Shown here: positions 12,547 through 62,564 of the stretch, in pieces
How positions within the stretch are numbered: the first letter of the stretch is position 1
How the letters are laid out: every line of letters starts with the position of its first letter
Assembly: GCA_965649765.1 (NCBI GenBank)
Contig: OZ287753.1
Coordinates: forward strand, 70,990,001-71,054,000
Direction of reading: 5' to 3'
Source: Bispira polyomma
Lineage: Eukaryota
DNA: 64,000 bases
Made by a program: the position numbers and the translations under genes
Notes under the pieces: generated by a model
Told to the model about the DNA's origin: nothing
Databases searched by the model: none
What the model saw: the letters and a program-made list of their open reading frames with translations, nothing else

Positions 12547-12559
12547 TCGCTGCAGACGT

Positions 12560-26591: not shown

Positions 26592-26687
26592 ATGGATGGC
26601 TACGCCTGTGACTTGCGGGTCGCCAATGGACGGGCTGATCACATGATTGATGGGGTGGAACCATACGAAGAAAATATTCACCACAAG
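26592..26687 (+). CDS. Rab26/Rab37-like GTPase, first coding exon of isoform a (MDGYACDLRVANGRADHMIDGVEPYEENIHHK)
   Basis: 96-nt frame ending CACAAG|GTAAGT (consensus donor, phase 0). Joining to 61452 gives ...HK-TILVGDSGVGKT, the junction I recall from the RAB37 alternative isoform and Drosophila Rab26. Acceptor TTCTTAG| at 26564 suggests an upstream exon. Not in the ORF track. Confidence 0.75.
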
Positions 26688-29600
26688 GTAAGTGTCTCTG
26701 GTTAACCTCAAAATGCTTAAGTCAAGTCTTGTGAGGTGTTTATGTGGTGTTTGAGTTGATAGAATATCAACCAAAATTAACCTTTTTAAAATCTTCTAAC
26801 ATTAGCCATCATACAATAATTATAGTGGATGTAGAAAGTCTCCTATTATTAATGTTTACTATATTTAGGTAAACTTTAATGTACCTTTATATCAGTCAGT
26901 TATAAAAGACAGTATATGTACTATCATACAGTAAAATATGCATAGTCATTTTATGATAATAACAGTGAAGTGGCTTGTATATATTGTGCAAGTGGAAATT
27001 TTAGATGGAAGAAAAAATCACTGTGAGACATATGTCACTATGTATTACTTATTCATAGTTGTATATTGTCTGCAGTAGCTACTACATTCCAGTTAGATAG
27101 GGGGACAGAGCACATAAATACCATTGAAAGTGAGGTTTAATGAATGGGAGGCTATGTCTCTCTAAAGCAGTCTGTGTAATCAGGTTAGATTGTGATATGA
27201 ATAAATAATAAGATCCTGATGTGAGTAAAACTGGATATACGACTGACAGAAAAACTGGGCATTTAATGTCAGTAACTTCTCTGTAATATAAACTACACCT
27301 TTTCAAAGGCATGGAGCTACGACAATGCCTATTAGGTTGTAATATTTCGAGCTCAAAATAAAGAAGTAATAATGATGATTCTAAAAATACTGCGACAATA
27401 ATAATCTTGTTTCTGCCAAAGTAATGTATGTATTTTGTAGTTATTTTGGAAAGAAATAGGGAAGGCTTTCTCTGAAGTTACTCTAGACAGACCATCAAAC
27501 AATATGGGAAATGTTAAAAGGGTAGAAAAAATGCCTTCTAAGGGCATTATTGAAATTTTGTTTGCTTAATTATCTATTTATTATATCTATATGTATGGAT
27601 ATTGAAATCTAAACATTTGATACCAAACTTAATGTCCAGTTTTTTAAATGGACCACTTTAGAAAATCACACAATCCAGAACTTAATACTGGATGTGTGTT
27701 ATCCACTGTCTGTGGTTTCTTATCTATCATGACTGCTCCCTAATGATCTACTTGTCCACTGACAGGGAGGATCCATCACTTTAAGTCTCTTGAGGATTTC
27801 TATCGGGATCTTTGTATCAAAGGTTGACTCTGTAAGCGGTCTGTATCAACTAAGCCATTGGCAAATCACAGTCATTAAATTACACACAGCTTTAAATGTA
27901 GAGAATTAGCAGAGGTACAAATAGACCATTTAATTACTGTACTCTGACCAATTTGCAGTAATCAAGGTTCACTACATTACAATTTTATGGCAATCTTTTT
28001 ATTTGACATATATTATATTATAAAGGAATGCACAGGGCAAGTTTCACTGGCCAATTAATATTCACAACACACATTACATTAAAAATACATTAAAAAATAC
28101 CAGCAGTTTAAGCTAATTTTAAGATATAATTATTTTGTACACTATTTTTATGTATTGTTGCAATTCATTTTTTGAGTGATGCATTTATGCAGAAAGACCT
28201 GACACAAACAGGTGTATTTGTATAAGGTACTGGTTTGAACACTTCCTTCTTAATATAATTTTGTATGATGTATTATTCATTATATTGCACCTTGGAGTTG
28301 TATGCTGCATTATTGATGCTAAGCATCTTCTAAAGCTCAAGATATAAATTGATTAAGCAAGGAATAGTCTAAAAACATGGCTGAGCCATAAGCAAAAAAT
28401 ATACCTTGTTACTAAATAATGACTTTGTGTGCATATGCAAGTTTAAATTGATCAGATTAAAGTTTTCTCGTGAAGCAAAAAAAGTGGGGTTTTTTGTAGT
28501 CTAAGCTCCACTGGGAGGTTTGTTTCACAACATGGGTGTGGTCAGTGAGAAAGCCCAACATGTGGTCCCTCTGGTCGGCTGAAAGGAAAAAGAGCAGCTA
28601 GCGTAAGAATGCTGGTGTGGAACCACATTCTTGAAGAAGAAAGCATAGATTTTGAAGAATATCCTATAGTAAATGGGGAGCAACTGTTATTTTTGGTAAG
28701 AAGTAGCATCAATCTCTGATGTTAAGATGAAGGATGACCCATACACAGAAGATGAACATGCACAGGGAGTTCTGAATGGACATATTAAAACATGGGAAAT
28801 ATTTCCCTTGAAAATAGTGTACTGTGTCTCTGTTTTTAAAGGGTGTGCCCCTATTTGTGTAATTAAAGAGAACCAGGAATGGAATGGCATATTAGACTAG
28901 ATAAATAGATAACTGTTGTAATTAAAGTATATTAGGGTTCTTCTCGGTGTTTAAACTGTATCAAAATTTTCAAAGCGAGAACGCCATTGGACCTAAAATG
29001 AAGCAGCCACTGTTTAATGCATGTTGTGAATATTGGGTTAGATTGGTATGCAAACACTCACAGATGCATTAAACAAAGCTTTCACTTAAAGCTCTTGTTC
29101 TTGTCAGTTTGCCTTTAAGAGTGAGATGTAGACAATGAAGTCCCCCACTAATTACTGTGTGTGTATCAGTTAATGAGAGTGTTGTCAACCAAATGACCTC
29201 TGCTGTTGAACCATTTCCCCTCCGGAGAAAATCCTTGTTAACAAAATCATGTGCACAGATATTGAAAACCAGTAGTTGGTGTGGCAAGACATCCTTAACA
29301 AGAACAAATAGGGAGTCATTTGGGTGGTGTTTAGATCAAACTTTCCACTTCAAATCCTTTCACCTTACACTTCATTACTGATGGGTTTGATTCCCGTCCC
29401 TAGCATGCTTGTGGGGAATGTGGCAGTAGACAGTGGATCACAGACAGCTAAACCAACTGAACTGTACTTTCTTCCACCAATAATATAATACAGAATACAC
29501 ATTAAACCCAGACTAAATTCAAGGGAAAACAGCAATATATTTAGACTATATTTGATATTTTTGCTATATTTTTCATAATCTTAGCTAATTGTCAAACAGT

Positions 29601-30554
29601 TGCACATTTTGGAGTTTCACTTCAGTAAAAATGTTAAAAACCTATAATTTTATGGAGCAGTTTTAAGTAAATCTTGCCTACATGATGGACTGGCAATTAG
29701 TGTGGCATGTTTATGACGCCAGGAAAGTTTTAGAAAAACAAACAAGAAAACTTACCCAAATATTTTATGATACCACGTTGTAAGTGATGTATAGTTGGCT
29801 ATTGATTCACAAAATGTAGTAAAACACTGATGCATGTCAATTACTGCTTCACCTACAAGCTATAATGCGCATTTAAAACAAGCACATAAATAAGTAAGTC
29901 ATCTATTTATGACAAACCACTTTGTGAACAGAATTGTGTCTGCACCTAAGGCTATATATACTTCTCTGTTATTGATATTTGTTAATGCAATTACAATAAC
30001 AACCTAAACAGCTTTATCTCAAATTAATTCGAGTATTACCATAATCCATACATTTAATACACTTTCACAGATAAGTAGAAGAACAAATTTAAAGATATAC
30101 TATAATAATAATAACACAGTTGCACAGATCATTTTAGCTAGGAAGTGAATTAGCTTATGTCACCGTAAAATTAATCTCCAGAAAACTGGCTATTCTTTTG
30201 TTTTCTAAAGGATAACACATAAATTACTGAACTGATTTACATGACATTAGGTGAAGGGATTGAGCATGGACCAAGGGCGAATCCATAAAATTTTGGAGCC
30301 AATACAGCTAGAAAGGCAATTTGGAATTGTTTTCACTTCTGGCTCTGTGGTACCTTAGGGGAGGTATGTCCTCTACTGAGTGCCATGCAAGCTGCCGATT
30401 TAATAACCATAACAACTTGAATGGCTTTAACTAAAATACATGGACCATTAACATCATCCATAATTTTTTTAAATTCATTTCCACAAAAAAATTATAGCTG
30501 CCAATTACATTACGTAATGTTAAGCCTTAGAATTTGTTGTACGAAGATTAAGAG

Positions 30555-30815
30555 GGGAGCCTCAGTGGCCTAGTAGTTAGCAAGCAGTGTGCTTCACAAT
30601 CACTGGTCTCTCACCTCTGGGATCGGCTGGCGTGGGTTCGACTCCCGTCGATGCCCATGTGGGAAAGGTGGTAGTTTCTTACTGTGGGCCGCTGGTTTCA
30701 GTGTAGAACCTTAGCCAACTGTATACAGTGTTTCCTCCAGCATTCCAACTACCCGTCCCAATATAACCTACTAAAAGGTACTAGAGTGGACGTTAAACAT
30801 CCAAATTCAAATTCA
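30555..30815 (+). mobile_element. tRNA-derived SINE with 14-bp target-site duplication
   Basis: A-box-like GTGGCCTAGTAG, B-box GGTTCGACTCC, AAATTC tail; TSD ACGAAGATTAAGAG at 30541-30554 and 30816-30829; absent from paralogous blocks at ~34180 and ~39345. Confidence 0.9.
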
Positions 30816-31744
30816 ACGAAGATTAAGAGTGTTGTCACTATAATAACACAAAAACTACTGAGCCAGTTAATATGTAAATAAATAGACACCTGGGGCATGA
30901 GAAATCATTTATGAAATGTTTGGGAAGATGCAGGTAGAGTCATCCTGGTTTTATTTTTTGACACTAGGTGCCCCGACAGATGTATGTGGTCCAATAAGTA
31001 ACTTCATCAATAACAAATTATATAAAACTCATTGATGATGCAGTCCCTATTTTTCTGTCATGTATAACACCTATTTACCTGTAAATAATACAGATTCAAA
31101 TGGCCTGTGGTTACTGACACTACCCATGATTCTGGTACTGCCATAGCAACTATATAAGCAATAACTGGGCAAAATTTGGCTAATCTAAAGGGGTCTTGCT
31201 AAAAACTAAGAAGCAGATAACATTGTTATTTTTTGTAATCAAGGTTGACCATATAAAACCCATTCCACATCTAAGACTAACTTAATTCACTTTCATTAAA
31301 ACACTAATAACCCTGTTATATACATGGTTTATAGCCATAAAAATGGGATATCCTCTGATCAATAACTTTTCCATCACACCTAAAGATCACTTAGCTTATA
31401 AATCCTACCTTATAAGCCTCACCAAGAACATCAGTAAAAAATCCATACTGGATAAGGCCACCCAATATAAATGGAGTTTCTGCATGTCTTCCTCCCACCT
31501 CTCTAACCCATTTAGCTCACATTATTGTGGCAGATAAGATCCCATAAAGCAAGTAGAAAGAGGATTCAGGGTATAACAGCCGTTTTCGCAGAAAGTGTTG
31601 AGCTAGAATGTTATACACAAACTATTAAGGGATTTAGTAGAGTAGATACCTCTGTCAATGCACAATGTGCCAAAAATATGATTTTTTTTTATCATTGAAG
31701 AATTTACATAGCACCGAATTGATATAATATACTATAAGGCTTTG

Positions 31745-32220
31745 GGTGTCCAAATGGTTAGTTGGAGGACAGAAATGGTTCATGACCAGAAAGGCATCTG
31801 TAGGGGAGATTGGCTAAAGCAGTCGGAACAGATGTGTCTTGAGTTTACAGCTCAGTTGAAGGACCGCTCGACAGAGTGCATTTTGGACTTTCTGCAGCTT
31901 AGCCAGATTGGCCCAGTTAACACCATAGAGGAAAGAGTTGCAATAATCAAGATGACTGGTGAAACAGCATTAGCAATCAAGATGACATTTCCTTGCTTGA
32001 GAAACCTACAGATTCTATTCAATTCTCTGAGATGATAGTAGCAAGCATGGCAAACTTTAGAAATGTGGCTGTTTAATAAATGATCAGATTGACAGTAGAC
32101 AACTAGGTTTCTAACTTCATCAGCAGATACAACATCACTGCCAAGAATTAGGTAATGTGAGAAAGTGGAAGTCGAGTTGTTTCCTTATATGGTTGTTACC
32201 AATGAGAGCAAATTCAGTTT
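31745..32220 (-). mobile_element. Ancient CR1/L2-group LINE ORF2 fragment
   Basis: Minus strand encodes DYCNSFLYG (~31920-31948), the typical LDYCNSLL motif, and a KTEF-like motif near 32210. Confidence 0.6.
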
Positions 32221-35200
32221 TCCAAACTTTGTACTAAACAAACACATACAAACAAGTAACAACATAACCTACTTGTCTTAGGTAAGAACAAATTGTTTTG
32301 CTCATTATAGTCAGAATAATCATTTTAGAAATATCTTGCTGAAACCTTCAATGTGATTTATATGTTCAACCATGCAAAATATATCTCATTTTTTCTTCAC
32401 AGAATGATTTTACTTTAACTCTTTGATCCAGAATTTATGTCAAAAATAAAGCAATTTTATTGCTGGTAAAAAATACGTTTATTGCAAGTGTTTCGGTAGA
32501 CAACACTGTGTGGGTTCTCTCTGCACAAAGGGCATCATCTATTAATGTCAGTAATCATAAGAACAACCAGACTTTTCTCTTAGACAAAATCCTATTGGAA
32601 ACTGAAAGGTTTTTCCTTTTTGTAGGAGAGTGAAGTCATATTTATAGTGGTTGTCTGAGCCTGTACTGATTAAATCTCTTAAACTGGCAAAAAATCTCAA
32701 AGTGTGTCCTGCTGTATCTCTTGTGTACATTAAAGATGTGTAAAATATTGTTAAATATTTAGGTTTCACGTGACTGAAAGCTCTGTTAAAATGAATGGTG
32801 ACATGTGTAGGTGATGTCCATTAAAAAGAAAATGACTTTATGTGGTACTGCTTTTTAGTTGAAGCATGAGCTTAAGACTTTTGATAAATCTAAGCTCTGG
32901 TGTATATATGTGTTGGGATTTAATTATATTATCTAATATTTTCATTGGCTTAAAAGGTTAATGCTCTGAAAACAATGAGGAACATTAAAAGCTTTTAATG
33001 CAGGAAAATTAAAAGTTCCTAAATGCAGGAAAAGTTAAAGCTTCTAAAATTCTGGCTATTGTATGGCTGCAACAGTTTTCCATTTAACAGCCTGTAGAAC
33101 AACCTTTATTAAAAATGATAAACAACAACTTCATTTACTTAAATTGTAACATGAAATAACATTAATAACGTCAAGCCCCCCCCCCCCCCACCACAACATA
33201 AAATGTTATTAGTCCTATTTAGGTGCAAAGAGTGTCACTCTGCATTGCTGCTCATAGTTATGTAATGTCCCCAGTAGCTATTACATTCCAGTTAGGTAAA
33301 TAATAGATAATAGAAGCATTTATATAGTACAAAATTGATAAAAATCATCTGATGCGCTGTAGAGGACAGAGCGCAAAGTCCCATTGAAAGTGAGGTTTAA
33401 TGAATGGCAGGCTATACCTCTAAAGCAGCATGTGTAATCAGGTTATATTGTGATATGAATAAATAATAAGATCCTGATGTGAGTAAAACTGGATACAGGA
33501 CTGACAGAAAACTGGCCATTTGATGTCATTAACTCCTCTGTAATATAAACTACACCTTTTCGAAGGCATAAAGATAGGCCAATGGCTATTCATGTTTCGA
33601 GTATAAAACTATAATGACTATAATGCTCAATGTATAAAACGGTACTTTAAACTTATAAGTAAGAAAGATTCCATAATAAGTATACCATAAAATATAAAAT
33701 TTGCATGTTGACAATTAAAGGGTGGTTTTCCAGTATAATGGATTCACACCTAAACGGCACTCGTCCATTACTCCACAGTAAATTGATTGGCATTCAATTA
33801 ACTCAAAACCATAATAATTATACAGTTGCACAGAAAATTTTAGCCAGGAAGTGAATTACTTGATGTCACCGTCAAATTAATTTCCGGAAAACTGGCTATT
33901 TGTTTGTTTCTTAAGGATTACACATACATTATTGAACTGATTTACGTGACATTAAGTGAAGGGATGGGCATGGACCGAAGCTGAATCCATTAAATTTTGG
34001 AGCCGATCCAGTTAGAATGGTGATTTAGAATTGTTTTCACTTCTTGCTCTGTGGTACCTTGGGGGAGCTATGTGATCTACTAAGTGCCATTCTAGTTGCC
34101 AATTTAATTACTATAACTACTTAAATGACATTATCTGAAAGAACTGGAGCATTAACATAATCCATATTTCAAAAGTTGGTATGTCTGACTGTTGTCACCA
34201 GAACAACACAAAAACTACTGAACCAATTTGGATGAAAGAATGTTTTAAATGTTTTAGAAGATGCAGGCACATTGATCCATGTTTGCTTTTGTTTTACTTT
34301 TTGACACTATGGTGCTTTGGCAGATGTATGTGTTCCAATAGGTGGCCTTCAAGTGTTTTCATGAATAATAAATGATATAAACCTCATTGATAATGCAGTA
34401 CCTCTTTTGTACCATGTATAACACCTATATTAAGGCATTATATATCCAAATAAAGTCTGAATCACCACTATTCTATTGTTTTGGCACTCTATAATCCCAT
34501 GAAATTACAACAAATGCTAAATATAGTAAATATTAATTGCAGCAAATTGATTGGTGAATACTGTAATTAAATACTGCAATTAAATACTGTTTTGTGTATC
34601 TTTATTTTTCTATTTTGTAATGACAGTCAACTACTATGACATTTAATGGCTATATATGACTTGGAATGACATTTAGAATACTGCCAATGGGTTAGTTGAT
34701 ACAGACTGCTTACAGAGTCAACCCCTCATGCAGGGAACCCGATAGAAATTCCCAAGAGACTTAAAGTGATGGATTTCCCCTGTCAAGAGACAAGTAGATC
34801 ATTATGGATCAGGATGGATAAGAACCTAGAGATTATAGATGGCATATCCAGTAGTAAGCTTTACATATTCATTGTTTTGAACAGATGAATCTTAAATCAA
34901 GTTTGTTTAATGAAAAACTATGTATGGATAAAAAGTTAACCTAATATTAAAGTCTGGTATGTGGATTGCCCTACATTTCAATATCCATTTTTATGGATCT
35001 GTTTGACAATTAGACAAAGTTAATTATTTTAGCATTACCCTTAAGGGTAGATGTTTTATACACTTGCAAAAGTTTCCTTATTGATGGATTATTTAAGCAG
35101 AGTAACTGCAGAGAAAGTCATCTTTCCCCATCTTTCCAGTAATAATAAGTAGAAAATGTATACAATACTTTGGCAGAAATAATAATAATTGGATAACATG

Positions 35201-38200
35201 ATTACATCCTTATTATTTTGACATTATTTTAGAATACTTTTCTCTCATTCATATCATTATTATTAGTAGAATTTTGACTGTATTTACTATTCTTTTCATT
35301 TTGACAGTGACACAACCATATTGTTAAGTCATGTGGTTGATACTAAACCCCAATACCAGTGGATTTTCAATAAAAAAGGAAACTCCTTTTCTGATCTAAT
35401 TTTCTCAGGCCCAAGGCCATTTCATCAAGTGATTTCCAGTATTTGTATCATTAATGGCTAGTGATGGCAATATAAACCAGTAAACAAATATTAGTGGAAG
35501 ATTTTTTTTTTTAGGTTTTGCCTCAAATACGTGCCTGACTTAGTTTTATAAGTAACAAAAATAAGATAAACATACTTTCTTTGAGAGATTATAATACAAT
35601 AATTCTACTGTTGAGACTATTGCAATCAATAGCTTATTTAAATGTTGTGCCACAAGCATCTGTACAAGGGGTCACTAGTGTAGAAAAATGGATCCTCTTC
35701 TTTGCATTTTACTGTAGAAATAAAGTTTGAGTGTGTGTACTTTATTTGGCAATTAACAATTTACTGTGGAGTAATGGACGAGTGTCGTTTAAGTGTGAAT
35801 CCATTATACTGGAAAACCATCATTTAATCGTCAAGATGCAAATGTTATATTTTATGGTATACTTGATATAGAATCTTTGTTACTTATAAGGTTAAAGTAC
35901 TGTTTTATACATTGGGCATTATAGTCATTATTGTTTTATGGTTGAAACATTAATAGCTACTGGCCTATCTCTATGCCTTCGAAAAGGTGTAGTTTATATT
36001 ACAGAGGCATTACTGACATTAAATGGCTGGCTTTCTGTCAGTCCTGTATCCAGTTTTACTGACATCAGGATCTTGTTATCTATTCATATCACAATCTAAC
36101 CTGATTACACAGGCTGCTTTACAAAGACATAGCCTCCCATTCTCCAAACCTCGCTTTCAATAGGACGTATGTGCTCTGTCCCCCTACCTAACTGGAATGT
36201 AATAGCTACTGTAAACATTACACACTAATGAGTAGCAATACAAAGGGACACACTTTGACGTCAGGAATGTATTTCATGTTACAGTTTAAGTAACTATAGT
36301 TGTAAATCATTACTAATGTGGCAATAAAATACCCAGAAATGACCACATTAATTTTACTTTATGACTGTACAACATTCAATATTAGTGAAGTTAGACATTT
36401 GTGAGAGTAATACAGATCGAGATCTGCCAGTAAAAGTGTCACTTTGCACTAAACCATAGGCCTTCAGCAAGATATAGGAGGTAAGAGTGTTATCTAAAGA
36501 CTACCGAGGCGCTTACTGCACATTGTCTAAGCCCGGACTTCCTATCAGCAGCCTGTCCAATTTTTGAACAAAAGTTAAGAAAAAAAATAAAGAAAATATG
36601 GGATGAAAGGAAGCCCTAAATCAGCTGATGTTGGCTCGGCTCGGATTTCAATAAATCGGCCAACGCCGATGACTGCTGAAAGTAGTCCAAGCTAAGAGAA
36701 AAAATATGCCTTTTAAACTTTTATAATCATTGCAATATATCCCTATGTTATACTCAGGTCAATATTAGCTCAACATAAATACAGGCAAATGCAAAGCGGA
36801 TATTTGTAAATATTATTTAGGTTGTATGACAACCGACATATTAGGCTAAGATGAACGTAGGGAAGATCAATAAAACAGATCCAAGTTTTAAATACCTAGC
36901 CACACAGTCACTTTGCAGAATTTAGGCATTCTATAATGTCACAGAGTTAGAAGTTAAGTCATAAATATAAGGTTTCTTTGAATTAGTCAATCAATCAGTC
37001 AATTAATATATGACTCACTCAGTTTCAATGACTTACTGTAAACCTTTTCTATTTTAGTAAGATTTTTGGAAGTTTCAAATTTTCCTGCATTTATAAAAAC
37101 TTTTAATTTTCCTGCATTTACAAACTTTTAATTTTCCTGCATTGGAAACTTTTAATTTCCTTATTGTTTTTAGAGCACAGACTTTTTAAAAAGTCTAGAA
37201 ATTATGATGATATCCCGACACATATAAACACCGGGGTCCAGATTTATCAAAAGTCTTAAACTCATGTTTAAGCTCAAATACAGTACCACATCAAAACATT
37301 CACTTTTTAAAGGAAATCACCTAGACATGTCACCATTCATATTAACAGAGCGTTCAGTGACGTTGAACCTAAATATGTCATAAGAATGTTACATATCTTT
37401 AATGTACACAAAGATAAAGCAGGACAGAGTTTGGACGATTTTTTGTCAGTTTAAGAGATTTGATTATTATGGGCTCAGACAGCCACTGTAAATGTGACAT
37501 CACTTTCCTACAAAGGAAAAAGCTTTTAATTTTAAATAGGATTTTGTCTGAGAGAAGAGTCTGGTTGGTCTTATAAATACTGACATCAATAGGTGATGCC
37601 CTTTATGCAGAAAACCCACGCAGTATTGGCGACTGAGACACTTGCAAACCCCTTCTTTTTACACTGGTAATTATAAGATTGTTTTATTTTTGACATATAG
37701 TCCAGCTTTGTGTATTTTCTATGAAAAAATAATATCGATTAAAGCTGTTGTTAATTTCGTCCTTTGAAGACCAAATTATACATATATTGTATTTTTGAAT
37801 ACAATACTGCGTCCTCTTTTTTAAAGAGTGTACATTATAAAATGGACCATAAAATAAATGAAATAAATGACATATTTCTATATAAGTTACTTCTTTTAAT
37901 GTGCAATTTACATCCATGCATGTAGCAATGGGTTGGTATTACTCGCTGTGGTTGGTAGCAGCTTCTTTGAAGTGGTATCTTCTTTGTAGCTTCCTCGTAC
38001 AGACATTTGCCTCTATGTCGCCATTTCTTGTCTATCTTCTCCCTCTTTGCCTTGGTCACACAGTCTGCCTACAGACATACATGAATTAAACCAAGCTTTC
38101 ACGTAAAGTTCTTTTTCTTGTCACTTTGCCATCAAGAGTGAGATGTAGACGATGAGGTCCCCCCACCAATTACTGTTTGTGTATCAGTCAATGAGAGTGT

Positions 38201-41200: not shown

Positions 41201-41657
41201 CATTGTTAAACAAATTAATAAACAATGCTGAACTTTATGTCATCAAGAATATAGCAATCTTATAAATTTGCTAGTAAAAAAAAGTATTCCTACTGTAAAG
41301 TGTGTCTGTTGACACCACTGCGTGGGTTCTCTCTGCATAAAGGTCATCATCTATTGATGTCAGTATTCATGAGAACAACCAGACTCTCTTCTCCCAGACA
41401 AAATCCTATTAAAAACTGAAAGGTTATTTGTAGGCGGTGATGTCACATGTACAGTAATTACCTGGGCCTGTATTTTTTTAATGTCTTAAAATTTAATCGG
41501 CAAAATGTCTTTGAGTATTTATTTTTCCTTCGGCTTGAGAAGTTCGTGTTAGATGAGTGTAGAGGTAATATTTCCACTGCTACAGTTGTAGGTTTGATTT
41601 TCATCCATGGCATTATGTATTTTGGGAAAGTTAGCAGTGGATTTGGGTAGAATCCAG

Positions 41658-44730: not shown

Positions 44731-47030
44731 TTTTTTTCAGTCATAACCTCCGTTAATGAGTCCGTTGATTTGTTTCCCACAATATGACATGACATTTAAT
44801 GAAGAACGAGACATGGCAGAATCTATTAAATATTTAGTAAATCCTTCCTGCAATGGCTGATCTAAGAACATATTTTTAACTTCTTTTGCTCTGTAGCACC
44901 TTGGCAGATATTGAACCATATTTAACCTCATGTTGGATCATATATATATTCAGCTCACAACCAGGACATAGTGGGTGTAATGTCATTGCACAAATAACAG
45001 CCTTATTCACTGATAATGTATTTGGTAATATATAGTTTATATATAGTTTATTTATTATAGTGACATGCAACATAACATTAATACATGTGATACAAAAACA
45101 AAACAAATGTTACCCAGCCCTCTGGTGGGCTTATAAGTCACTCCAAATACCTATACAGTTGTGTTTGACTAGTTAGTGTTCCTCAATAAAACTCTTACGC
45201 TTATTCCAGATAATGTCTACATATAAGGCTAGTTCTTTGGGACAATACTGCATTATTTTATTAAGTTTAACATAAATATCAAAATCATAAAAACCCTGCA
45301 ACAGTTTACTTATTTTATCATACAAAGTTTTACGCTCCTGATCATAATAATCACATACACATAAAAAGTGAACTTCATCCTCAATCAATTCTTTATCACA
45401 TATTTTACACAATCTTTCATCAAGGGGGTTCTATAGTATCGACCAGTTTCGATTGCCAGAGGTAATATGCCAAGACGAACCTGAGCGAGAAGTGATCTTT
45501 GTGAGCGTGTTAATGCTACTTTTAAATATTTTTCAGCTTCAATATCACTTTTAAAGTGAACATAATTTCTTAATTTTGGCATACTTGGTATATTTTCTGA
45601 CCATTCAATGTGCATTAAGTTATATAATTTTTCTTTAATATTTTTAAGGTCAAATGCATCACCATTTACAAAAGATTCTTCAACATTTTGTTTCTCTGCT
45701 ATAGTGTAAATATTACCTGACCAATTATAATTACTAATGTTTCTAAGATCATTTTCAAAGATTTTTCTTGTCAACTGCTCATGGCTCATTTTCATTAAAC
45801 GATTCCAATTTCGTAAGGTACACAAATAATAGTGGTACTTAATATTCAACCACCCCATTTCTAACTGTAAACCTAGTATTGGGGCATTTTTATGGACACC
45901 AAGAAAATAACGAATTGCACGATTTTGTATTTTTTGCATATATTTATCATTACCATAACTCCAGACACTTGCTGCATAGTCTAAAATAGATCTTACACCA
46001 CTATCATACAATTTTGTAAAAGTATTGTATCGAATCAAGCTATATCACCCATACTAAATTTAAAGTTAGTTTGTGTCATTCTGCTTTTACGGAAATATAC
46101 TATTTTGGTTTTATTGGCATTTATTTTCATTTTCTACTTTGAGCACCATACATTTACAACAAACAACATTTGTTGCAGATTATCTTCATTTTCACTAATC
46201 AAAACAATATCATCTGCATATAATAAAACACACAAATCAGTATCATTGATACTGATTCCAAGTTTGCGACTATTAAGTTCAATGGCCAAGTCATTTAAGT
46301 ATAAATTAAATAGTGTAGATGACAAATTATCCCCTTGTCTTACCCCGGATTCTGTTACAAACCAGTTTGTCAAATCATTGTTTAGCTGTACAGCAGATAG
46401 GGTGTTGCAGTAAAAAGCCTTTATAGCATTATAGAGGTTACCATTGATGTTATTCAATAATAGTTTGTAGAAAAGTAGGTCTCTATTAATGGTATCAAAT
46501 GCCTTGCTCATATCTATAAATGCAGTAAAAGTGGATTTTTTCTGAAGCATTCTATTTTTAATTATCGAAGACAATGTGAATATGTGATCTTCACATGAGC
46601 GACCCTTTCTAAAACCATTTTGTTCATCGACAATAATATTGTTTGTTTCAAGAAAATTTGTCAACCTGCTATTTAAGATGCTAAAATATACTTTACCAAT
46701 ACAGGATAAGAGACTAATTCCTCTGTAATTCAAGGGAACATAAGGGTCTATGTCACCTCCTTTAGGTATAAGTTTCATGATAGTTTTCAGCCAGAGACTT
46801 GGAACCATATGATGCAAAAAACAGAAATTGAATAACTTATGAAGAACCAAATTTACTTTGTTACTTTTGAGAACCTCATTTGGAATTCTATCAATTCCTG
46901 TTGCTTTCTTATTTTTACATTTCCTTAGTGCCAGATAAACTTCAACAATGGAAATTGGTTCATTGATCAATTCATTATTTTCGCCACGTATCTCTAAATT
47001 ATCTTTTAGTTTCATTGTTTCATTGAAAAA
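44731..47030 (-). mobile_element. 5'-truncated non-LTR retrotransposon (LINE): RT, C-terminal CCHC knuckle, 3' UTR and A tail; disrupted
   Basis: KATGIDRIPNE, NYRGISLLS, EQNGFRKGRSC, FIDMSKAFD, GVRQGDNLSS, LLYADDIV; then LAIETGRY...CKIC...EDEVHFLCVC; tail TATGACTGAAAAAAA at ~44731-44745. Clade not assignable by eye. Confidence 0.93.
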
Positions 47031-47629
47031 AAGAGTAAATGTCCATGTATTTATACAAGATGAATGGCAATAGGAAGCCTTGAGAAAAGGTCAATAACAA
47101 TGACATTAAATACCCAGAATTCTAAGTCTCTCCCAACCAAGGCTGTGGCTTAGTAATAAAAATACTCCTCGGTCTTTTAAAAAAATGTATCCAGTACTTG
47201 TATCAAGGAAAGTATATGGAGATGAAAAATTACACAAAAAAAAAAAAAAAGTACAATCTTTAATAACAACTAATTGATTCTGAAATATCAGTAATCTTTC
47301 TGTAAGTTCTTCTTTAAGAATTTAAATATGCCTTATATAATTTTTAGCGTGTTTTTTCTCTCCATAGGAATAGACAAATGAGTATGATAATGGGATTATA
47401 ATGCAGAGAATTGCACACCCTTAATCATGCTTAAGCAAGATCTATAAGGAATGTTTACATTATAAAGCCATTAAACTCTCATTAAAAGGCATATGTTTAG
47501 CTACAAATATAATAGTTAAATCACTTTTCCAACATTGTATGTTGAAAACGATTTGTTGCCAATGCCACCCACTTAAATTATGTATTTTCCTAATTATTTT
47601 CCAACTTAGCCACTGATGACTATCCTCCT

Positions 47630-47790
47630 ACTAGGGATAGGACCCAGTGACAGAGGACTCTGCCATTTTATGTGGTCCCTCAGCCCCATATGTGTCTGCC
47701 TCTACCTGGTTGCCCCAGACTAGTATCGAACTTGGGTCCTCTGAGCCCCTAAAACAAGTGTTTTACCCACAGTGGTTAATATGGATAAGA
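47630..47790 (-). mobile_element. SINE fragment (family also at ~50910-51160 minus, ~54676-54895 plus, ~56050-56220 plus)
   Basis: Shared CAGTGACAGAGGA..GCCATTTTA.GTGGTC segment and tRNA-like head. Confidence 0.6.
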
Positions 47791-52417: not shown

Positions 52418-52773
52418 GAGCCAAATAGACCTGGCTGATTTTGCTTCTGAATCTGTCATCTGACGTCCATTTCCGTCATCCGACTCCCAAATTTGCAGAT
52501 ACACTACATCAGAAAAACTGGCCGATTTACGAAAACATTACCTGGGAAACAATGCTGTTTAATACAGAAAAACATCACCAACCCTCACAAAACAATGAAC
52601 TACTAATTCCGATTTATGTCTGTCGTCCAAAAAAATGGGCTCCCGATTTGGATGTGCCGTCGGCCAGGTGTATTCTACTTCTCTATTTTATTATTATTTT
52701 AATATTTTCGGATGTCGGAAAAGGATGTTGGGTGACGGATTCGGAAGCAAAATCGGCCAGGTCTATTCGCCCC
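52418..52773. mobile_element. MITE with ~65-bp TIRs and TTAA/TTTA flanks (Kolobok-like)
   Basis: AATAGACCTGGCTGATTTTGCTTCTGAATCTGTCA at the left and TGACGGATTCGGAAGCAAAATCGGCCAGGTCTATT at the right; purine-purine termini. Confidence 0.8.
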
Positions 52774-53656
52774 TTTACCTTACCATTTACCCCTCGATGG
52801 TGAGCAGTATTATTGACCCTATATCTGTTGGTATAAAGGTGACACTTTATTGGGTGATGTTGACATGTCTGATTGTTAGCTGCAGTATTAACCGTGTGCC
52901 TGTTGGCATATTCTGGTTGGGCAAATGTATAAAAGTAACACTTTGTTGGGAGATGCTGATGTATTTCATTGGCAGCAGTAGTATTGACCCTGTATCTCTT
53001 GGCACATTCACTTATGCTGTGTGGAATCTACTACCTATTCTAAAATTGGTAAATGGTGTGTGAACAACAGTTCCAAGAAAATTTTACCCGTAAAGTTTGC
53101 ATAAACAATTTTTTTTCAAAGCTAAAGGAGTTCAGTCTACAGAAGACATTCCTCACTGTACTAGTCTTTCTTTTTGATTGCATTAGATTCTACATGATAT
53201 ATTTCTCATGGTATTTGGACCATACCCCTTGATCATAAGGTCCACCAAATGACTATAAAAGCAAATCCTAACTACCCAAGACAGATGTATTTGGTATTTG
53301 CCCACAGTCAACCATCCACAGAAGAAGAAATTATACGATATTTGTAAGTTGTTCCCCTCTGTCACCTGTGTGTGTGTTTCAGGCAACGCTAGCCACAATC
53401 TCACAGATGGTGGCAAATGTTACATGACAAGCTCTCTAGACCTTTGCCACCCACTTCACCATCATCAGTCAGCCGAAACTGTGCCAGTTGAGTTATAACA
53501 AAAATTGGCACTAGCCAAGCTAGTGGTAATGATGTTATCACTGTTTGTGTTCTGCCATGCATTTTGAGAGTTTTTTTTTTACAAAACAAGAAAACAAACT
53601 GCTACTAGTATTACTAGCAAAATGAATGTTTTGATGTAGTCCATAAAAGGTCTAAG

Positions 53657-53871
53657 GGGGCCGCAGTGGCCTAGTGGTTAGCAAGCATTGCGCTTCATAA
53701 TCATTGGTCTCTTACCTCTGGGATCGGCTGGGGTGGGTTCGACTCCCCTCGATGCCTATGTCGGAAAGGTGGTAGTTCCTTACCATGGGCCACTGTTTTC
53801 AGTGCAGAACCTTGATCAACTGTATGCAATGTTTCCTCCAGCGTTAAATATCCTAATTCAAAAATAAATAA
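53657..53871 (+). mobile_element. tRNA-derived SINE, same family as 30555-30815
   Basis: High similarity to 30555-30745; TSD ATAAAAGGTCTAAG (53643-53656) and ATAAAAGATCTAAG (53872-53885). Confidence 0.9.
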
Positions 53872-54675
53872 ATAAAAGATCTAAGCCTATACAACAGAAC
53901 TATTCTATTTAATTGACTTATTTCCACTTTCTAAAAGTTCTCTTTTCCTACTGTTTTATACTAAAATTGCTTTTAAATTATATTAACTTTCTATTATAAT
54001 TCAAACAGAACATTTCTCTCCCAAAGTGTAAGGTCCTACTCTACTTTGCAATAAAAAATAGATTGTGACTATATTTTCTGGGTTTAAGAAATAAATTAAA
54101 ACCTATCTCTTAAACTTACTCCCCCTGTACACCTCCACATCCTTCATTATAACCTGGTTTTGTTTTTATGGACTTCTCAATTGGTTAAATGATTCTGCAG
54201 TTGCATTTTAAAAAATTCCTTGCAATTTATAAGACACGTTAAAAATGCAAAATACAATCCTATTCTTCAAGATTGTCTTGTACCTAAATAAAAAGTTTCA
54301 GCAATGCATTTATACTTCACACTAGGCAGGCAGGTTATCTATCTTAGAATGGACTATTCCCGAGCAGTACATGTTCCGGCCATTAACACCTTCACTGAGG
54401 GTAATTACTACACTCCCGACGCATAGACTGCTCTAGTACAAGCCATATAGTGAGCTGAATATGGACACTAGCTAACAGCAGACAGGATTTGTTAATTACA
54501 TTACACACGACAGAACATTCCTTATAATGGAAACGTCCCACTCAGTGAAACAACTATCTGTATCATAATTAGGCATATTCTGACATGGGAAATTCTAGTG
54601 AATATGGAGAGAGAGATTTAATAAAGACCCCAGTGGCTTGGATACATCATGGAGTTAAGTATTTCAAAGTATAAA

Positions 54676-54895
54676 GGTCCCCCGTGGCGTAGGGGTTAGG
54701 GAGTTGGTCTGGTGATATGAAGGTCCCGGATTCGACTCCCGGTAACAGTTTCATTGGTGGGATAACATCCTTTTGCAAACACATGTTTGCCTAAAGGCTT
54801 GGATGATCACTTAAAATGGCAATCCTCTGTCACTGGGTCCTATCACCAGAAGCAGGCTAAAGATCCTTGTGGACATTGATAAATGGTCATCCTCA
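54676..54895 (+). mobile_element. tRNA-derived SINE (second family)
   Basis: A-box GTGGCGTAGGGG, B-box GATTCGACTCC, body shared with 47630-47790 and 50910-51160. Confidence 0.7.
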
Positions 54896-57159
54896 TGTCC
54901 CTCTCTTCAGTTAGAGAGAATGACAGTAACTGAAGCAGTTGACTCTTACAGTCAGGAAAGAATTATGTGCTGATTATAAATACAAATACCAAGGTGACCT
55001 AGTGGTTAGGAGTTGGTTTGGTGATCAGAAGCTCCTTGGTTCGACTCCTGGTAATGATATAAAGGTCATGGTTGGATGGCATCTTTGGGAAAAATGTCAA
55101 CATGTTCTGATATTATGCTTTAGAAGATTCCTGCCATCAATCTCTTCATGTATGAAAATCAGGTGCTACATGTTTTTAATAGGACATCTGATTTCAATAT
55201 TTCTCATAAAATGCATCAAAAGCAATCAGAGATTTATCTTTAACCCAACATTAGGTTGAAATGCTAATACTTTTCCGAACTTATAATTATTATGAAGCAA
55301 TTTCTTAATCTAAACACGCTGCTATGTGTAGAATGTTGTTGTCAAATATTTTTTAGTCTGGATTCTCATATGATTATTATTATTTAGATTCTACCCTTAG
55401 TTACAAAACTGAAGCGACTGAAGAGTTAGTGGCTTAAATAATCACCTATACTAATCAAGATATTCCTACTAATTGTGTGGTCGATGTTACAAAAGAGAAG
55501 CAGACCACTGCTTCCCCAAGGCTTCCTCTAAAATCCTATTAGACATGCAAAGCTACCATTTGCAGCAGTTCTGTGTTATATAGCAGTTCATCAAATGACC
55601 AACACATTTGATGTCTGTCCAAGGTTGAAAATAATACATGGACTTATTGCATTTCTTTTCTTTTTTTGTTCATTAGTTGCAGTTGTTACACTAGCTAGTG
55701 TACTAATGACACTACAGTAAGTGAGTCCAACTGCCAATTCTAATTTGTATTCAAAGCATATCCCTATTAAAATTTATACTCATTCATCTACATTTGTATT
55801 GTATTCAAAGTGCTGTAGAGCCGGCTTTTGATGATAACTATTTGTCAGCATCCCTGATATTCTTTAACCTGCCACTGTGGATAGAAACCAATGGCAGATG
55901 ATTGCCAAGTAATCCACTATGTGTATCTGCGATTAGTTCCAAATCCTCTGTGTTGAGAAGTCTTGATATAGCAATATCACTTGCACCTACAGTCTCGGCC
56001 GAGGAAAGTTGTTTGCAGTTCAGACCTCTTGACTAGCTACTTATCTCTAGTGGGCTAGTGGTTAGAGAGTTAGTCTGGTGATCAGAAGGTTCTCAGGTCT
56101 ACTTCCACTGGGGAAGTTGATCGGGTAATCGGAAGGTCCCCGGGTCAACATCTGCTGATACCGTAAGGTTCAGTGGTAAGATAACATCATTGGGCAAGAT
56201 GTGAACACGCCATAACCTACTGATAATGACTCAGGCCATGTTGCAGGATTATTCCTTTTGAAGAATAAGCGCCTTAGAGAATGATACATCATGACACTGA
56301 GGTTAAACTAAAAAATTAGGTACACGAAATAGCTGGGAAAATGTAATTAGTTGAAAGTATTGGCTGTCAAGGCAGATTTCAAAGTCACTTTTCAAAATGG
56401 AATTCTGACTGAGCTAATTTAGCTATACTCTGCAAAGTTCGTGATTACCTCTGAATGGCTTTCTCTAGAATAACTCCATGTAAATAACTGTACTAAATTA
56501 GAAGAGACTAAGGCACAGTTACTTTTTAAAAATATAGCTTCACAGTGATGCAAAAGGCTATGTTCTCAAAGGTATTTCTAGTTGTTAGTTTTTAATACAT
56601 GAAAAGCTGACGCAGTGTTGTAAAGATAAGTAAACTGTATATAAAAATAAATTACAAAAGGGATGTACACTAATGTAGGATGAATTCTACAACTATCAAA
56701 GAGCCTTTTAAAAGTACTGTCAAGATAGTTGGCAGCTGGATCTAATGGTTAAGAGGGGTTTATTGCCCCAGAAAGTCACTAGAGCCAGCAGTCACTAGAG
56801 CCATATATCTGGATATGATGTAATAGCAAGGTATAGGTAAGCTCTATGTCTATGAACAGGCTATTCATTTAATCACCTCTGTCAAGAAGATATGCACTTT
56901 ACTGGGTGGCATACTAGTCCTTATATTTTGTTCTTTGTCAGTGGTTATACAAATGAGTACTTTGTTGTATTGAGCACTCACAAAAAACTTGCTATTTTTA
57001 AGTTATTTTTATACTAAGTTCAGCATCACGTCTAAAACAATCGGGTTGAACAATAATGATTTACCTTGTTTTCTGAATCTTTTTACATATATTTTGTAAT
57101 AGTCTGTGTATCTGGAAAGAAAGTCCTCTGTTGTTAACTTCTATCTGTTGTGATGTGAT

Positions 57160-57375
57160 GTGGTGGCCTAGTGGTTATAATATCACTGGCGCCTCAGCTC
57201 TGAGCATATGGGGGAATCAACTCAAATCCCATTACTTCCTTCATGTGGGGAAGTTTGCCAGGTACTTGCCATAGGTTGGTAATGGTTTCCAGTAAATAAA
57301 AAGTACTGGTTTCGTCCACAAATAAATCTGTCGCCACAATAGAACCAAAGTGGCGTAAAACCCTAAATAAATTTA
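57160..57375 (+). mobile_element. Degenerate SINE
   Basis: GTGGCCTAGTGG head, CATGTGGGGAAGTTTGCCAG core, GGCGTAAAACCCTAAATAAA tail. Confidence 0.6.
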
Positions 57376-60300
57376 AATTCTATCGGTTGTAATCTAAGGA
57401 AGAAACTTTGCTAAAAAGCCTTACTAAAGTTTTAATTTTTAGTAAAGTTTAGGGAAATCGAAGTTACAAGTTGGATATGTACTACTGTAAGTCAGAGAAA
57501 GATTAATGACTACATTGAATCCCTGAACATGGGAGATGCTGCATTGAGTATAAATTGGAATAGCAATACATGTATACTCAGCATTTGCAAAGTGTTCAAG
57601 AATTGCCTGCATGTCTTGGTGGGTTATGTAGAGCTGTAGTATTGATTTTCTAGGTTATCTTTGCTCTATTTTTTTATCAAACATCTTAGCCAACTACATT
57701 AGGCTATTCCCCAGGCGGAATACCTACATTAAAAGTTAATTTCACTGTCTTTGTAAAGAACTGTCAAGCAAAGGCCTATTGTCTCGTTCTGTGAAAAGTA
57801 AAGAATAGCACCAGAAGGGAACTCAGTCGAGTGCATCTCTCAGCCAAGGTGCAACAAACAAATATATTCCTTTGTCCAGCCTTTTACGCAGACCCGCTCC
57901 AATTTTATTTTGGATTTCGCCTTGCTCTATTTCTTATGCGACATGAATTTTTATGTAATAAATCGGTTTAGTAGTATTTGTGTTGTGCAAACAAACCACT
58001 GGACACCAATTAAAACATCATCTTTTTGGCAGAGGTAACGATATATATAACCAACTGTCAAGTTATTTGCTTTAGGGGAATTTAATATACAAAAATGTAA
58101 TACAAGTACATGTATATAGAAATGTTGATGCATTTGTGCTTGCCCCCAAATTGTGGAACTCATTACCTTTCAAAAAATAGACAAAATCGATGACTTCAAA
58201 AAGAACCTAAAAACCTTCTTATTCAATCAGAGCTACTGTAAGCGCTTTAAATAGACCTCCTAATAAAGCGCTATATAAATAGTATAATGTGATGTAATGT
58301 AATATTATTAGAAATTATTAAAGCATTCATCTCTTTTAAGAATTTGAATTCATACTTTAAGGTCACAGATTAAAACATTTCATTTTTATTTGATTTTTGC
58401 CTCCAAAAGAATGTTCAAGAATCTGTTTTTATTTCAGGTTTTCTCCCAACAATATAGACAATGAGTAGATGTAAATTAACGGCAGCATAACATTTCAGTA
58501 AGCTATGCCAAAACCCCTGCTGAAAACATGACAGCAGGTGAAAGGTCAACAGAAAGCTCAAAAGGTCATGAACAAAAGAAAATACTTATTTGAGGATATT
58601 TATAATTTCAAGTCGATTTCCGTACTGTCTTCAAATGTATTATCACCATGATACCCGTGCATTAGCACCACCCCAAAAACACTAAACAACTGATTGTGTG
58701 TTTCTTACAAATAAATGTTTGACACTAAACTGAGCTTCCTGAAATTACAGAAAAGTATAAAAGGCATCATCCATGGTGATAATACTGCACCGGTCAATAA
58801 TAGCTTGACCAGCAGAATAATGTTTATAATACTAATTCTAAACTGTTTCATTTCACATATCAATTTGGCACCACAATGTGACCTTAAATATGTTTTTAAC
58901 TTAAGGTAAATAGATTAAGGTAGCTATAACTTACTAATATGTAATATCATGAATACTTTCATTTCATATTATATCAATTCTGCACCACAATGTGATCATA
59001 AATATATTTTACTTGAATAGATGCAGGTAGCCATAACTTAGGTAAAATATTGCAGTGCTCTTTTTGTCGTGAAGAATGTACAAGAATATGTAAAATTCTA
59101 CTAGTTTTAGTCATATTCTCCCAAAGGCAAATCTGCAATGAGTGTGACATGAAAACTAAAAGGCAGGATGACATTTGTTTTTAACCTCTAGCCATAACGA
59201 TAGCTATCAAGGATGTCTACTCCAATATAAAGCCATTGAGCTGTCATGACAATCTGGACTATTATAGCCGGAAATAAGATCACTGGAGAAAAGGAATTTC
59301 TTATAGTGGCACAAGGGTTTGGTGTGTCTACGTTATCGCCATCATATTTAAAAAAACTTGTTTAAATGGCAAAATTGTTGTGCAGAATTTTTTAATGGTG
59401 TAATAATATTTTCCAAAGAATATACAATGTTATGGTTACTAAACAGTTACTTCATCTCATTCAATGACAATTATAAAGTACATGTATAGCATATGTCATA
59501 TAGTAAAATACTGTACATTTGTAGCATAAAATTCACTGTTATTAATTGTTACTACTGGCTAGGTCATTACAAAATTTTGTTTATTCTCTGGAATCTTGTC
59601 ATTTTTCACTACTCAGCATCATATCAAAGATCTTATTTTGTGGTAATAAAAGCTACAAATATGTCATACAATAAACTTTACAAAAAAAATCTTGGTTAGA
59701 ATTTCCTTACCTTTGCAATATCCAACCCTTCTATAAAAGAATTGAGTACATGTTATCCTTGCCTTATTTTAAAAGTGCAGTATTCTATGTGTTGTTTGTG
59801 TGTTTGTTTTGCCCTTTTTTCTATATGTAATTTATTTGAGTACATACCCCTTAGAGAATAACCCTGGGGAACCTTTAGTCTTATAGTCCTGGATTGAGAT
59901 AGTTGTAAATCAATCTACATCCAAATATTTAGGATGAGCCTAGAAGCATCTGTTGTTCATTTTTCACAGAAAAAAAATATTACTGCTTGTAGCATTGGGA
60001 TTAATTACATCAGAAACAGAAATGATGTGACTTGAACCTGTCTGACATTCGTTTACAAAGAAGATAGAATTACCTTGTTCTATTTGTATCAGAGTTATAA
60101 AAAGAAATTGATATTTCTAAACACACACAAAAAAAAAAAAATACATTCTTTAATATATCTTAAAGAAGCTGATGTGAAAATACCCTGAATTGTTGGGTTG
60201 ATTTGGTTTGTAGTGTTATTACCTTTTTAAACGAGAAAGATACTTTAAATTAATGAAGCTACACAACAGTCAATACTTCAATGCATGCTATCAACCACAA

Positions 60301-61451
60301 CTAATCTACCATATGTTTGTGTGTGAAAACTGTATATGTAAGATACTTTATTATATTGGTCTTTTAATGAATAAACCATCTTATATAGGGCAGAGACATA
60401 GATCTAAAGCATTTGGCTAAGTTATTACTGTTCAACTACTCTTTATTCAGTTAAATTTGACTTTAATTAATTATTTCTGTTTACTCTGTTTTAGATGATT
60501 ATATTTCTAGTTGAACAATGCACTCATGCAGGTTTTATACTGTTATAAAAAAGTTCCTTACTTCTCCTCAAACCCTGGTCTTGCTTTGAGCTCAAGTTTT
60601 GCAAAAAGCTTCATTAGATTTAGACTTTACTTTTGGTGAACCACTGTATGACTGCACTTTACACAGTTACCATTTTGTTCCAAAACTGTCAACACTAGTT
60701 TTTTTTTAAAACTGGCAGCTTCTTCATTTTATTCCAAAAGTGAAACCATTCAGGCGGGTATTTATTGTAGAAATAATAATGCCCTCATGAAAGGAATTCA
60801 ATTTGAAGAACAGTACTCTTAGAATGAGGTCATTCCTTACCAGAAGTAGATTTCTTAATTCCTGGGATTTTTTTTAAAGCAGCCTATTTATAAAAATTAA
60901 TATACGATATACATATATTGGTTATTGACAACTGGTCCAATGTATAAGTATAACAAGTATTTTAAACATAAATTGCTTAAGAAATTATGGAAGATTAATT
61001 CATTGTATTCTATGTATATAGTGAACTGTATCAACTACTGTAATAAATTATATCCAGATTTATTAGTTAGTGGAGCACATGTTGTTATTTGAACTGTTTT
61101 ACAGCAGTTAATGTCCACTGACAGCTAAGGTCTAAAGAATATAATCGTTTATATCTTTTAGGACATAAATACTGTGGTTTAGGAAACAAAATGACACACA
61201 GAATTGATCCTATATTGATTAAACTATTAAAAAGAAATCTTTATATTTAACTGTCTGTAGACCACAAGATGTGTTATTCGTGTGGGATATAGATGCATAA
61301 AATACAGATTCCTTAAAATTCTATTTTTTACTTAATTATTTTTTTTGAGGGGGGGGGGGGGGTTAGAGGGGAAAGGGTGTACATAAAATTAAAGCCCTTG
61401 GCGAGGCTACTAAATCCCTCTTACAACTTACAATTTGTGTTCTCTGTTCAG

Positions 61452-61562
61452 ACAATCCTGGTTGGAGACAGTGGGGTGGGAAAGACATCTCTACTGGTTC
61501 AGTTTGACCAAGGCAAGTTCCAAACTGGATCATTTGCAGCAACAGTCGGAATTGGATTCACC
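61452..61562 (+). CDS. RAB37: Rab26/Rab37-like GTPase, P-loop/switch I exon (TILVGDSGVGKTSLLVQFDQGKFQTGSFAATVGIGFT)
   Basis: Acceptor TTCTCTGTTCAG|, donor |GTAAGT, 111 nt, phase 0/0; G1 box GDSGVGKT and G2 Thr. Closely matches the RAB37 alternative exon as I recall it; invertebrate genes are co-orthologous to RAB26 and RAB37. Confidence 0.9.
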
Positions 61563-62330
61563 GTAAGTATAAAGTTATATTTTAAAGGCAGGACTTGTTT
61601 TCTAGCTTGTAATTATTCCAAGTATATATTACTAAAAAAGGGTGACTACTCCTTAAACTAAATTATTATACTATACTGGCTATACTTTAACACATGAATG
61701 AAAAATACCTGCCAGATACAATTTATTGTTGGCATTGTCATTTGTTTACAGAGGCTTAACTAACAAGTATAAAAAAGAACGTCTTAATGGTGACCTAAGT
61801 ACGATCAACCATATTGTATATTGACATTTCAAGAATATACAAATGAAATTTCGTTGAAAGGATGCAAATAAGGCCATTATAAAGTGATGCTTTAACTCAT
61901 GTTTTTAACCACATGGCAATTTATTTGTGAATTAGAATAACCAGGCGTGTTACCATTCAATAATTTATTAATTTATCAGACATTTCCGTGAAAAAACCCT
62001 TACACATGCAATCAATATTTGGTTATCATTTTTGTACATAGAGATACAACACGTAGATTTTAAAAGTACTAGGTAGTGAGTTTAATTATAACTTAAAGAC
62101 ATTCAGTACAGCTTATTGGGTTTAGTTGTCAACAGTATACCGCATTTAGAATACAACGCCAGGCACTAAGCTACTTTCGCGGATAAATATTTATGACAAC
62201 TCTAGTTTTGACAGATTTCAATATTTAGATTTATATTTTCACAACACCCTCGTTCAATACCGAATTTTCCAAGTTTTGGAGTTTATTCACTGGGTGGCGC
62301 TGACACCTCATAAATGGAATTCCCAACGAT

Positions 62331-62340
62331 CTGACGTCAG
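62331..62340. promoter_or_regulatory. Full palindromic CRE (CTGACGTCAG) ~115 bp upstream of exon 1b ATG
   Basis: Perfect TGACGTCA in otherwise CpG-poor DNA, directly upstream of a candidate first exon. Confidence 0.5.
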
Positions 62341-62453
62341 AGGTATTCCCTACACAGGAAAAACAAAACTTGTTGGATTATTGTGGAGGTGTGTTTGTGA
62401 CTGTTGGATACAAAATGTGTTTTGTGTGATGTGATTGAGCTGAGGATACAACA

Positions 62454-62564
62454 ATGAAGGGTGACAAAAAGGACAGAAAACAGAATGGATACTATGGATC
62501 TGAAACGAACGGTTTGACAACACGCCAATATGGAAGTAGTGACTTTTTCGACTTTGCCTGCAAG
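62454..62564 (+). CDS. Rab26/Rab37-like GTPase, alternative first coding exon b (MKGDKKDRKQNGYYGSETNGLTTRQYGSSDFFDFACK)
   Basis: ACAATG start, 111 nt, ends AAG|GTGAGT (phase 0). DFFDFACK resembles the D-F-Y-D-x-A-F-K stretch that precedes the P-loop strand in Rab26. Confidence 0.75.

Follow-up and report, generated by a model that had tools for sequence, protein, structure and literature searches.

A stretch of 64,000 nt of Bispira polyomma DNA (G000:C6:70990001-71054000, hereafter the window) contains the first part of a Rab26/37 gene, the remainder of which lies past the window end, where exons are given in C6 coordinates on the + strand. Our analysis indicated that this one gene likely assembles both of its GTPase switches from interchangeable modules, which are predicted to change partner binding; we place the probability of this reading at about 0.78. 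The exons, in the order 1a-2a-1b-2b-3-(4R, 4X, 4H)-5-6-7-8, match in length and phase and almost certainly form a single gene. In the 164 kb examined, exons 3, 5, 6 and 7 occurred once each, exon 2 (switch I) twice and exon 4 (switch II) three times.

The gene and its two switch I cassettes

The coding part of exon 1a (26592-26687, + strand) encodes 32 residues, MDGY...YEENIHHK, and ends in phase 0 at the donor GTAAGT. The peptide resembles the a-type N-termini of molluscs, e.g. Haliotis ...PEPYDEEAIHK, and the ATG is supported by this match of the peptide start. A likely acceptor for an upstream untranslated region (UTR) exon, consisting of a pyrimidine tract, an AG at 26564-26565 and a short open leader (26545-26591, + strand), was recognized from the sequence 26 nt before the ATG. 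A UTR exon thus probably precedes exon 1a, which is probably the first coding exon behind it rather than the first exon of the gene. The following intron (26688-61451, + strand; 34,764 nt, GT/AG, phase 0), the splicing of which is predicted from homologues, contains a remnant of a long interspersed nuclear element (LINE)-like reverse transcriptase (RVT_1; 45385-47090, - strand). Exon 2a (61452-61562, + strand; 111 nt, phase 0/0) is preceded by cag, reads TILVGDSGVGKT...ATVGIGFT and is followed by GTAAGT; it carries strand 1, the P-loop, helix 1, switch I and RabF1. Exon 1b begins 891 nt after 2a; its coding part (62454-62564, + strand) gives 37 residues ending in ...DFFDFACK, with the donor GTGAGT in phase 0, and resembles b-type N-termini, e.g. 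Owenia ...DFYDFSCK. The intron 1b-2b begins at 62565 (+ strand) and, like the gene, continues past the window end at 64000.

The sequences, donors and phases of these three exons were as described in the first-pass annotation, including the in-frame join of 1a to 2a, both ends of which are in phase 0; the join itself rests on homologues. That annotation had also predicted a second P-loop exon beyond the window, followed by shared exons, and a genome search located it: exon 2b (C6:71055025-71055135, + strand), of the b-type, with the sequence VMLIGDSGVGKT...VGIDFR and AG/GT ends, lies 1,025 nt past the window end. The shared exons that follow on the + strand are exon 3 (C6:71060330-71060371), one of the exon 4 copies, exon 5 (C6:71093868-71093920), exon 6 (C6:71109114-71109236), exon 7 (C6:71120042-71120118) and exon 8 (C6:71120821-71120923), which ends in GGCCTS-stop. 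The view that the cassettes 1a-2a and 1b-2b feed one set of shared exons was supported, exons 3 and 5-8 being single. A genome search with exon 2a gave only two matches, 2a itself and 2b, and exon 6 had a single match in the whole genome. The in-frame pattern of an ATG-initiated segment ending in K at a GTAAG or GTGAG donor occurred at only three places in the stretch 1-70400, namely 1a, 1b and one site inside a transposon. From 1a to exon 8 the gene spans ~104 kb of transposon-rich sequence. The joined models contain GDSGVGKT, T, DTAGQ, NKCD, ETSAK and GGCCTS-stop, i.e. a complete set of G1-G5 and a C-terminal di-cysteine.

The assignment to Rab26/37 is based on several comparisons. Rab26 (2g6b) was the best PDB match of both exon 2a and a mussel a+R isoform, and the named matches to exons 2a and 6 (best 120 per search) were nearly all Rab-26, Rab-37 or hypothetical proteins. 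Identity to a Tegillarca protein was 84% over 132 columns. In a tree of the constitutive part the gene adjoined Tegillarca (96/75) among bivalves (86/96), with weak support and an unsettled bootstrap; the rows of this tree were Rab26/37 only, so that it makes no comparison with other Rab subfamilies.

Exons 2a and 2b agree at 21/37 residues. The P-loop GDSGVGKT is the same throughout, as is the switch I Thr, and the differences fall in strand 1, helix 1, switch I and RabF1. The motif VGIGF, singled out earlier in RabF1 of exon 2a, is indeed present there (VGIGFT), as compared to VGIDF in 2b (VGIDFR). Of the proposed exchange of the nucleotide-binding loop together with the effector surface, the part on the loop was not supported, the P-loop being the same in both cassettes. 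Across species, 2a is identical at 34-35/37 positions to the a-type exons of macaque (34/37), spider, centipede, mussel and chiton, and at 20-24/37 to b-type exons, while 2b is identical at 30-33/37 to the b-type exons of other species. Because 2a matches the macaque a-type exon so much better than it matches its neighbour 2b, the pair is not a product of chance. An a-type exon was present in all of the best 120 of 711 matches to exon 2a, the sources of which included mammals, birds, amphibians, fishes, lamprey, hagfish, chelicerates, myriapods, insects, a barnacle and a bivalve. Among named lophotrochozoan records, a first exon ending in HK precedes 2a in 29 and 2b in one, where the first exon is a different one. 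Molluscs annotate further first exons, MCK and MSK before 2a and several before 2b (P0128-P0240), none of which was recognized in this genome; the short MCK/MSK first exons of mussels, oysters and scallops were not found in the 1a-2a intron, and there may be first exons of other kinds.

The switch II exon cluster

Between the single exons 3 and 5 we found three switch II exons of 67 nt each, with AG/GT ends and phase 0/1: 4R (RSITRAYYRDAQ; C6:71061410-71061476), 4X (RAVTRVYYRDAK; C6:71078981-71079047) and 4H (RSVTHAYYRDAQ; C6:71085541-71085607), all on the + strand and spaced by 17.5 kb (4R-4X) and 6.5 kb (4X-4H). When the exons were joined in silico in 32 models, every model with a single exon 4 (12/12) gave a full protein to GGCCTS, and every model with zero, two or three copies (20/20) stopped early. 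The copies differ pairwise at 17-22/67 nt, mostly at silent positions; since the proportion of synonymous differences (pS 0.67-0.92) is far above that of nonsynonymous ones (pN 0.08-0.14; Fisher p < 1e-4), the copies have diverged under purifying selection.

The forms were traced in 363 proteins gathered by three protein searches, which listed cluster representatives and the best 120 matches each, and two cluster look-ups. Given these limits, and because most named records are RefSeq models, species counts show presence and not range. Both the R and the H form were recorded in at least 21 of the 41 named lophotrochozoan species, comprising bivalves, gastropods, the chiton Liolophura and the brachiopod Lingula; at least seven of the 41 had each of the four possible combinations (a/b x R/H), and the remaining 20 species had few records or one form. 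The annelids Owenia (R form) and Capitella (H form) contributed one record each. In the relatives' records a given position is filled by either 4R or 4H, within the isoform series of one gene, and the switch II alternatives are visible in RefSeq isoform lists. In one model from Mytilus edulis (P0138), R is fused to part of H, in the order R before H, as found here. Complete spliced proteins that contain a single R or a single H exon are encoded by short Logan contigs of 1-2.6 kb (P0179, P0184, P0176, P0233 and P0358), which points to real transcripts in relatives. It is very likely, judging from these records and the exon structure, that 4R and 4H are alternately spliced in B. polyomma as well.

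Outside the named lophotrochozoan set, 161 H-form and 15 R-form matches were among those listed, and all 15 of the latter came from unnamed records; among the 363 proteins, no named vertebrate, arthropod or tardigrade record had the R form. Five b-type R-form proteins (P0305, P0307, P0310, P0352 and P0353) attracted our attention, two of which were included in the tree, where neither grouped with the molluscs. Should their source be a non-lophotrochozoan, the R form would be older than is apparent from the named records; an ESM Atlas query with P0310 returned no taxon.

In B. polyomma both 4R and 4H end in Gln (L003:7410-7476 and L006:1541-1607). In the named molluscs, R forms have Asn at this position, except for two land snails with His, and H forms have His. 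The terminal Gln may stem from local gene conversion or may be an older state that was retained. RNA pairing of the docking type was looked for around the exon 4 copies, with nothing convincing in the 13.7 kb covered, which lay mostly in the 33.5 kb separating exons 3 and 5; each region was searched alone.

Exon 4X has three private residue changes (S>A, A>V and Q>K) and four or five silent ones. Its length is exactly preserved, as are the AG/GT ends, and every residue of G3 and of the triad is intact, with synonymous divergence near saturation. For a neutrally evolving 4X, the probability of keeping the frame, the splice sites and no more than four residue changes was 0.02 at 0.2 substitutions per site and 0.001 at 0.3. 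Exon 4X is thus under purifying selection. The raw DNA contigs of both runs inspected (2/2) span 4X without differences; as these runs may include the sample of the assembly, they exclude an assembly slip only and say nothing on the rarity of the allele. A very high-copy short element lies 150 nt downstream of the exon (L005 about 5200-5560). Following ERFR, at the position equivalent to T72 of Rab8A, 4R and 4H have Ser, while 4X has Ala. Phosphorylation of Rab8A at T72 lowers binding of the GDP dissociation inhibitor (GDI) (PMC5695910). Overall, 4X is probably used as an exon.

Proposed mechanism and alternative readings

On alignment to 2g6b, we assign switch I and the RabF1 Phe to exon 2, and the Trp, G3, switch II and the Tyr that belongs to the hydrophobic triad to exon 4. 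The G1, G2 and G3 residues are identical in all modules, and nucleotide chemistry is thus likely to be kept. The residues that vary are located around the hydrophobic triad: D/G and R/T beside the RabF1 Phe, and H/R, S/A and A/V in switch II. The surface formed by switch I, the interswitch and switch II binds almost all Rab partners and sets Rab specificity, which is not predictable from sequence alone (PMC5902227). The isoforms may, on balance, be expected to differ in partner binding. The selection of exon 2 would be made at the start site: transcripts from a putative upstream promoter would splice 1a to 2a and skip 1b-2b, while a transcript from an internal start at 1b would, by the geometry of the sequence, reach 2b only and not 2a. 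Splicing would then select a single exon 4. Nonsense-mediated decay would clear transcripts that carry none, two or three copies, which we infer because those models stop early. Steric exclusion would hardly be the selector of exon 4, since the introns are too long. The likely product would be a secretory-granule Rab family in which a single membrane-targeting tail is combined with as many as six surfaces for effectors, guanine nucleotide exchange factors (GEFs) as well as GDI. In its widest form, which we put forward tentatively, the proposal would describe lophotrochozoan Rab26/37 as a combinatorial GTPase, in which the start site sets switch I and exclusive splicing sets switch II, with four surfaces in molluscs and brachiopods and six here, 4X without the putative phospho-acceptor escaping kinase control.

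Several observations weigh against the modular reading. The splice junctions are predicted from homologues and sequence; the public sequencing runs matching window positions 60500-64000 amounted to three rows from one study, none recorded as RNA. Most combination counts in relatives come from RefSeq XP_ models, which may join distant exons without a spanning read. The donors of 4R (GTAAAT), 4X (GTAAAA) and 4H (GTAGCT) are weaker than most others in the gene, and 4R and 4H differ here at only 2/22 residues, so the effect of the exchange could be small; no binding data for isoform pairs of this gene were found in the literature searched. Furthermore, 2a and 2b were both present in 95/363 proteins, 85 of them with the two joined directly, a share inflated by the search, which ranks double records first. 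The N-terminal choice may thus not be a strict swap everywhere, but no direct join was seen among named lophotrochozoan records, all 85 coming from other groups. The palindromic cAMP response element (CRE) TGACGTCA (62332-62339, + strand), noted earlier upstream of exon 1b, is present 114 nt before the ATG of that exon and is a possible promoter element; it supports a promoter only weakly, because it is one of five perfect palindromes in the window (4322, 24327, 36256, 41674 and 62332) as compared to 0.27 expected under a Markov-1 model. The one at 24327, 2.3 kb upstream of exon 1a, could mark the promoter of that exon.

A different explanation concerns the third switch II copy: 2a/2b and 4R/4H would be used, but 4X would be a leftover that was silenced recently or is spliced only rarely, giving four products instead of six. 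The X form was seen in 0/363 proteins (public DNA collections were not scanned for 4X), and 4X changes three residues common to 4R and 4H, has the weakest-looking donor (GTAAAA) and adjoins high-copy repeats. However, its length, AG/GT ends, G3 and triad residues have been kept despite near-saturated synonymous divergence, and the protein lists consist of cluster representatives from the best 120 matches, in which close relatives may be absent; we regard a leftover 4X as rather unlikely. It is also conceivable that the isoforms are near-equivalent in function and that the duplicated exons serve expression control, through separate promoters and decay-coupled splicing, more than partner choice. 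This would agree with the identity of the P-loop, G2 and G3 across modules, with the two-residue difference between 4R and 4H, and with the decay-type nature of every product that has no exon 4 or more than one. Transcripts of human RAB37 with different N-termini differ in tissue (PMC9714508), and all RAB6A/A' partners but one bind both forms (PMC2174079). On the other hand, this animal and macaque agree at 34/37 residues of the a-type exon, and the distinction between R and H persists in bivalves and gastropods as well as in a chiton and a brachiopod. The type-specific residues have been fixed over long times and would not be maintained by regulation alone, and we consider this explanation improbable.

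The last alternative questions the gene itself and would see in the locus two or more tandem Rab genes, partial duplicates or an assembly error. The ~104 kb span is rich in transposons, and tandem whole-gene Rab copies do exist elsewhere in this genome (C2:93.44-93.47 Mb), but exons 3, 5, 6 and 7 are single, the exon 4 copies differ at 17-22/67 nt and so are no assembly duplicates, and relatives list the same alternatives as isoforms of one gene, which makes such an arrangement extremely improbable. One gene with interchangeable switch modules remains the reading that we prefer.

A group of switch II-like matches on C2 was rejected as an exon cluster, since it consists of tandem whole-gene Rab copies. 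In this region (G000:C2:93.37-93.47 Mb) a Rab exon, presumably Rab1-like, precedes three diverged copies of a whole Rab gene in tandem, one of which has NKWD for NKCD. Upstream of the Rab26/37 gene, an intronless open reading frame (ORF) of ~404 residues (14981-16195, + strand), of the alpha-1,3-fucosyltransferase type (Pfam Glyco_transf_10 and Glyco_tran_10_N), lies ~10 kb from exon 1a. On the - strand, two ORFs at 202-2121 resemble the gag (with a zinc knuckle) and protease of a long terminal repeat (LTR) retrotransposon. Two broken elements at about 8970-13470 and 19730-22135, also on the - strand, have integrase-SAM-like and RNase H-like ORFs and are probably tyrosine-recombinase retrotransposons of the DIRS type.

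Comparison with known systems

The 2a/2b part of the gene is a further example of a published event, while the switch II cluster and its third copy without the putative phospho-acceptor are new. No description of a Rab26/37 switch II exon cluster was found in the literature searched, which did not extend to subscription journals, bioRxiv supplements and the supplement of PMC9741552; a term search of the main text of PMC9741552, which deals with Drosophila events, found no mention of RAB genes. In this gene both switches vary independently on an otherwise identical protein, and the switch II exchange alters only 2-4 residues and is kept across molluscs and brachiopods. The gene is therefore a natural panel for finding the residues on which a secretory Rab depends for effector, GEF, GDI and kinase recognition. 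It also makes the human RAB37 a-type isoform worth attention. If the combinatorial reading is true, one gene would do the work of separate vertebrate Rab paralogues.

The relatives of the gene are named Rab-26 or Rab-37, as are the secretory Rabs to which we compared it (PDB 2g6b; PMC9813115). The solved structure 2g6b has a b-type switch I and an H-type switch II, and among the structure alignments shown there was no a-type, R-type or X-type chain. Human RAB37 has the same arrangement of N-termini, as the first-pass annotation had stated: supplement rows of PMC8373072 (2021) give two exons of 37 residues and 111 nt, a upstream of b, each with its own N-terminus, and the human a exon differs from 2a at 3/37 residues. 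That study lists the RAB37 event with both human exons and the Drosophila orthologue and dates it to Bilateria, so the ancestral origin suggested for the arrangement had already been stated there, and it also proposes a surface patch for different partners of the two exons. In contrast to the gene described here, the supplement of PMC8373072 lists one event for RAB37, none for RAB26, and no switch II cluster, both human RAB37 proteins shown having the H form of switch II.

The closest known parallel to the switch II cluster is RAB6A/A' (event 172 in the supplement of PMC8373072; PMC2174079; PMC11529276), where a tandem duplicated exon also covers WDTAGQERFR and switch II. Three residues of the equivalent exon set RAB6A and A' apart, and a single partner, Rabkinesin-6, has been reported to discriminate between the two (PMC2174079). 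Unlike the cluster in B. polyomma, the RAB6A/A' event concerns another Rab subfamily, has different exon borders (35 residues as compared to 22 here), is dated to Vertebrata, comprises two copies and is listed with no alternative switch I exon. The switch II duplications of RAB6A/A' and Rab26/37 appear to be independent in origin.

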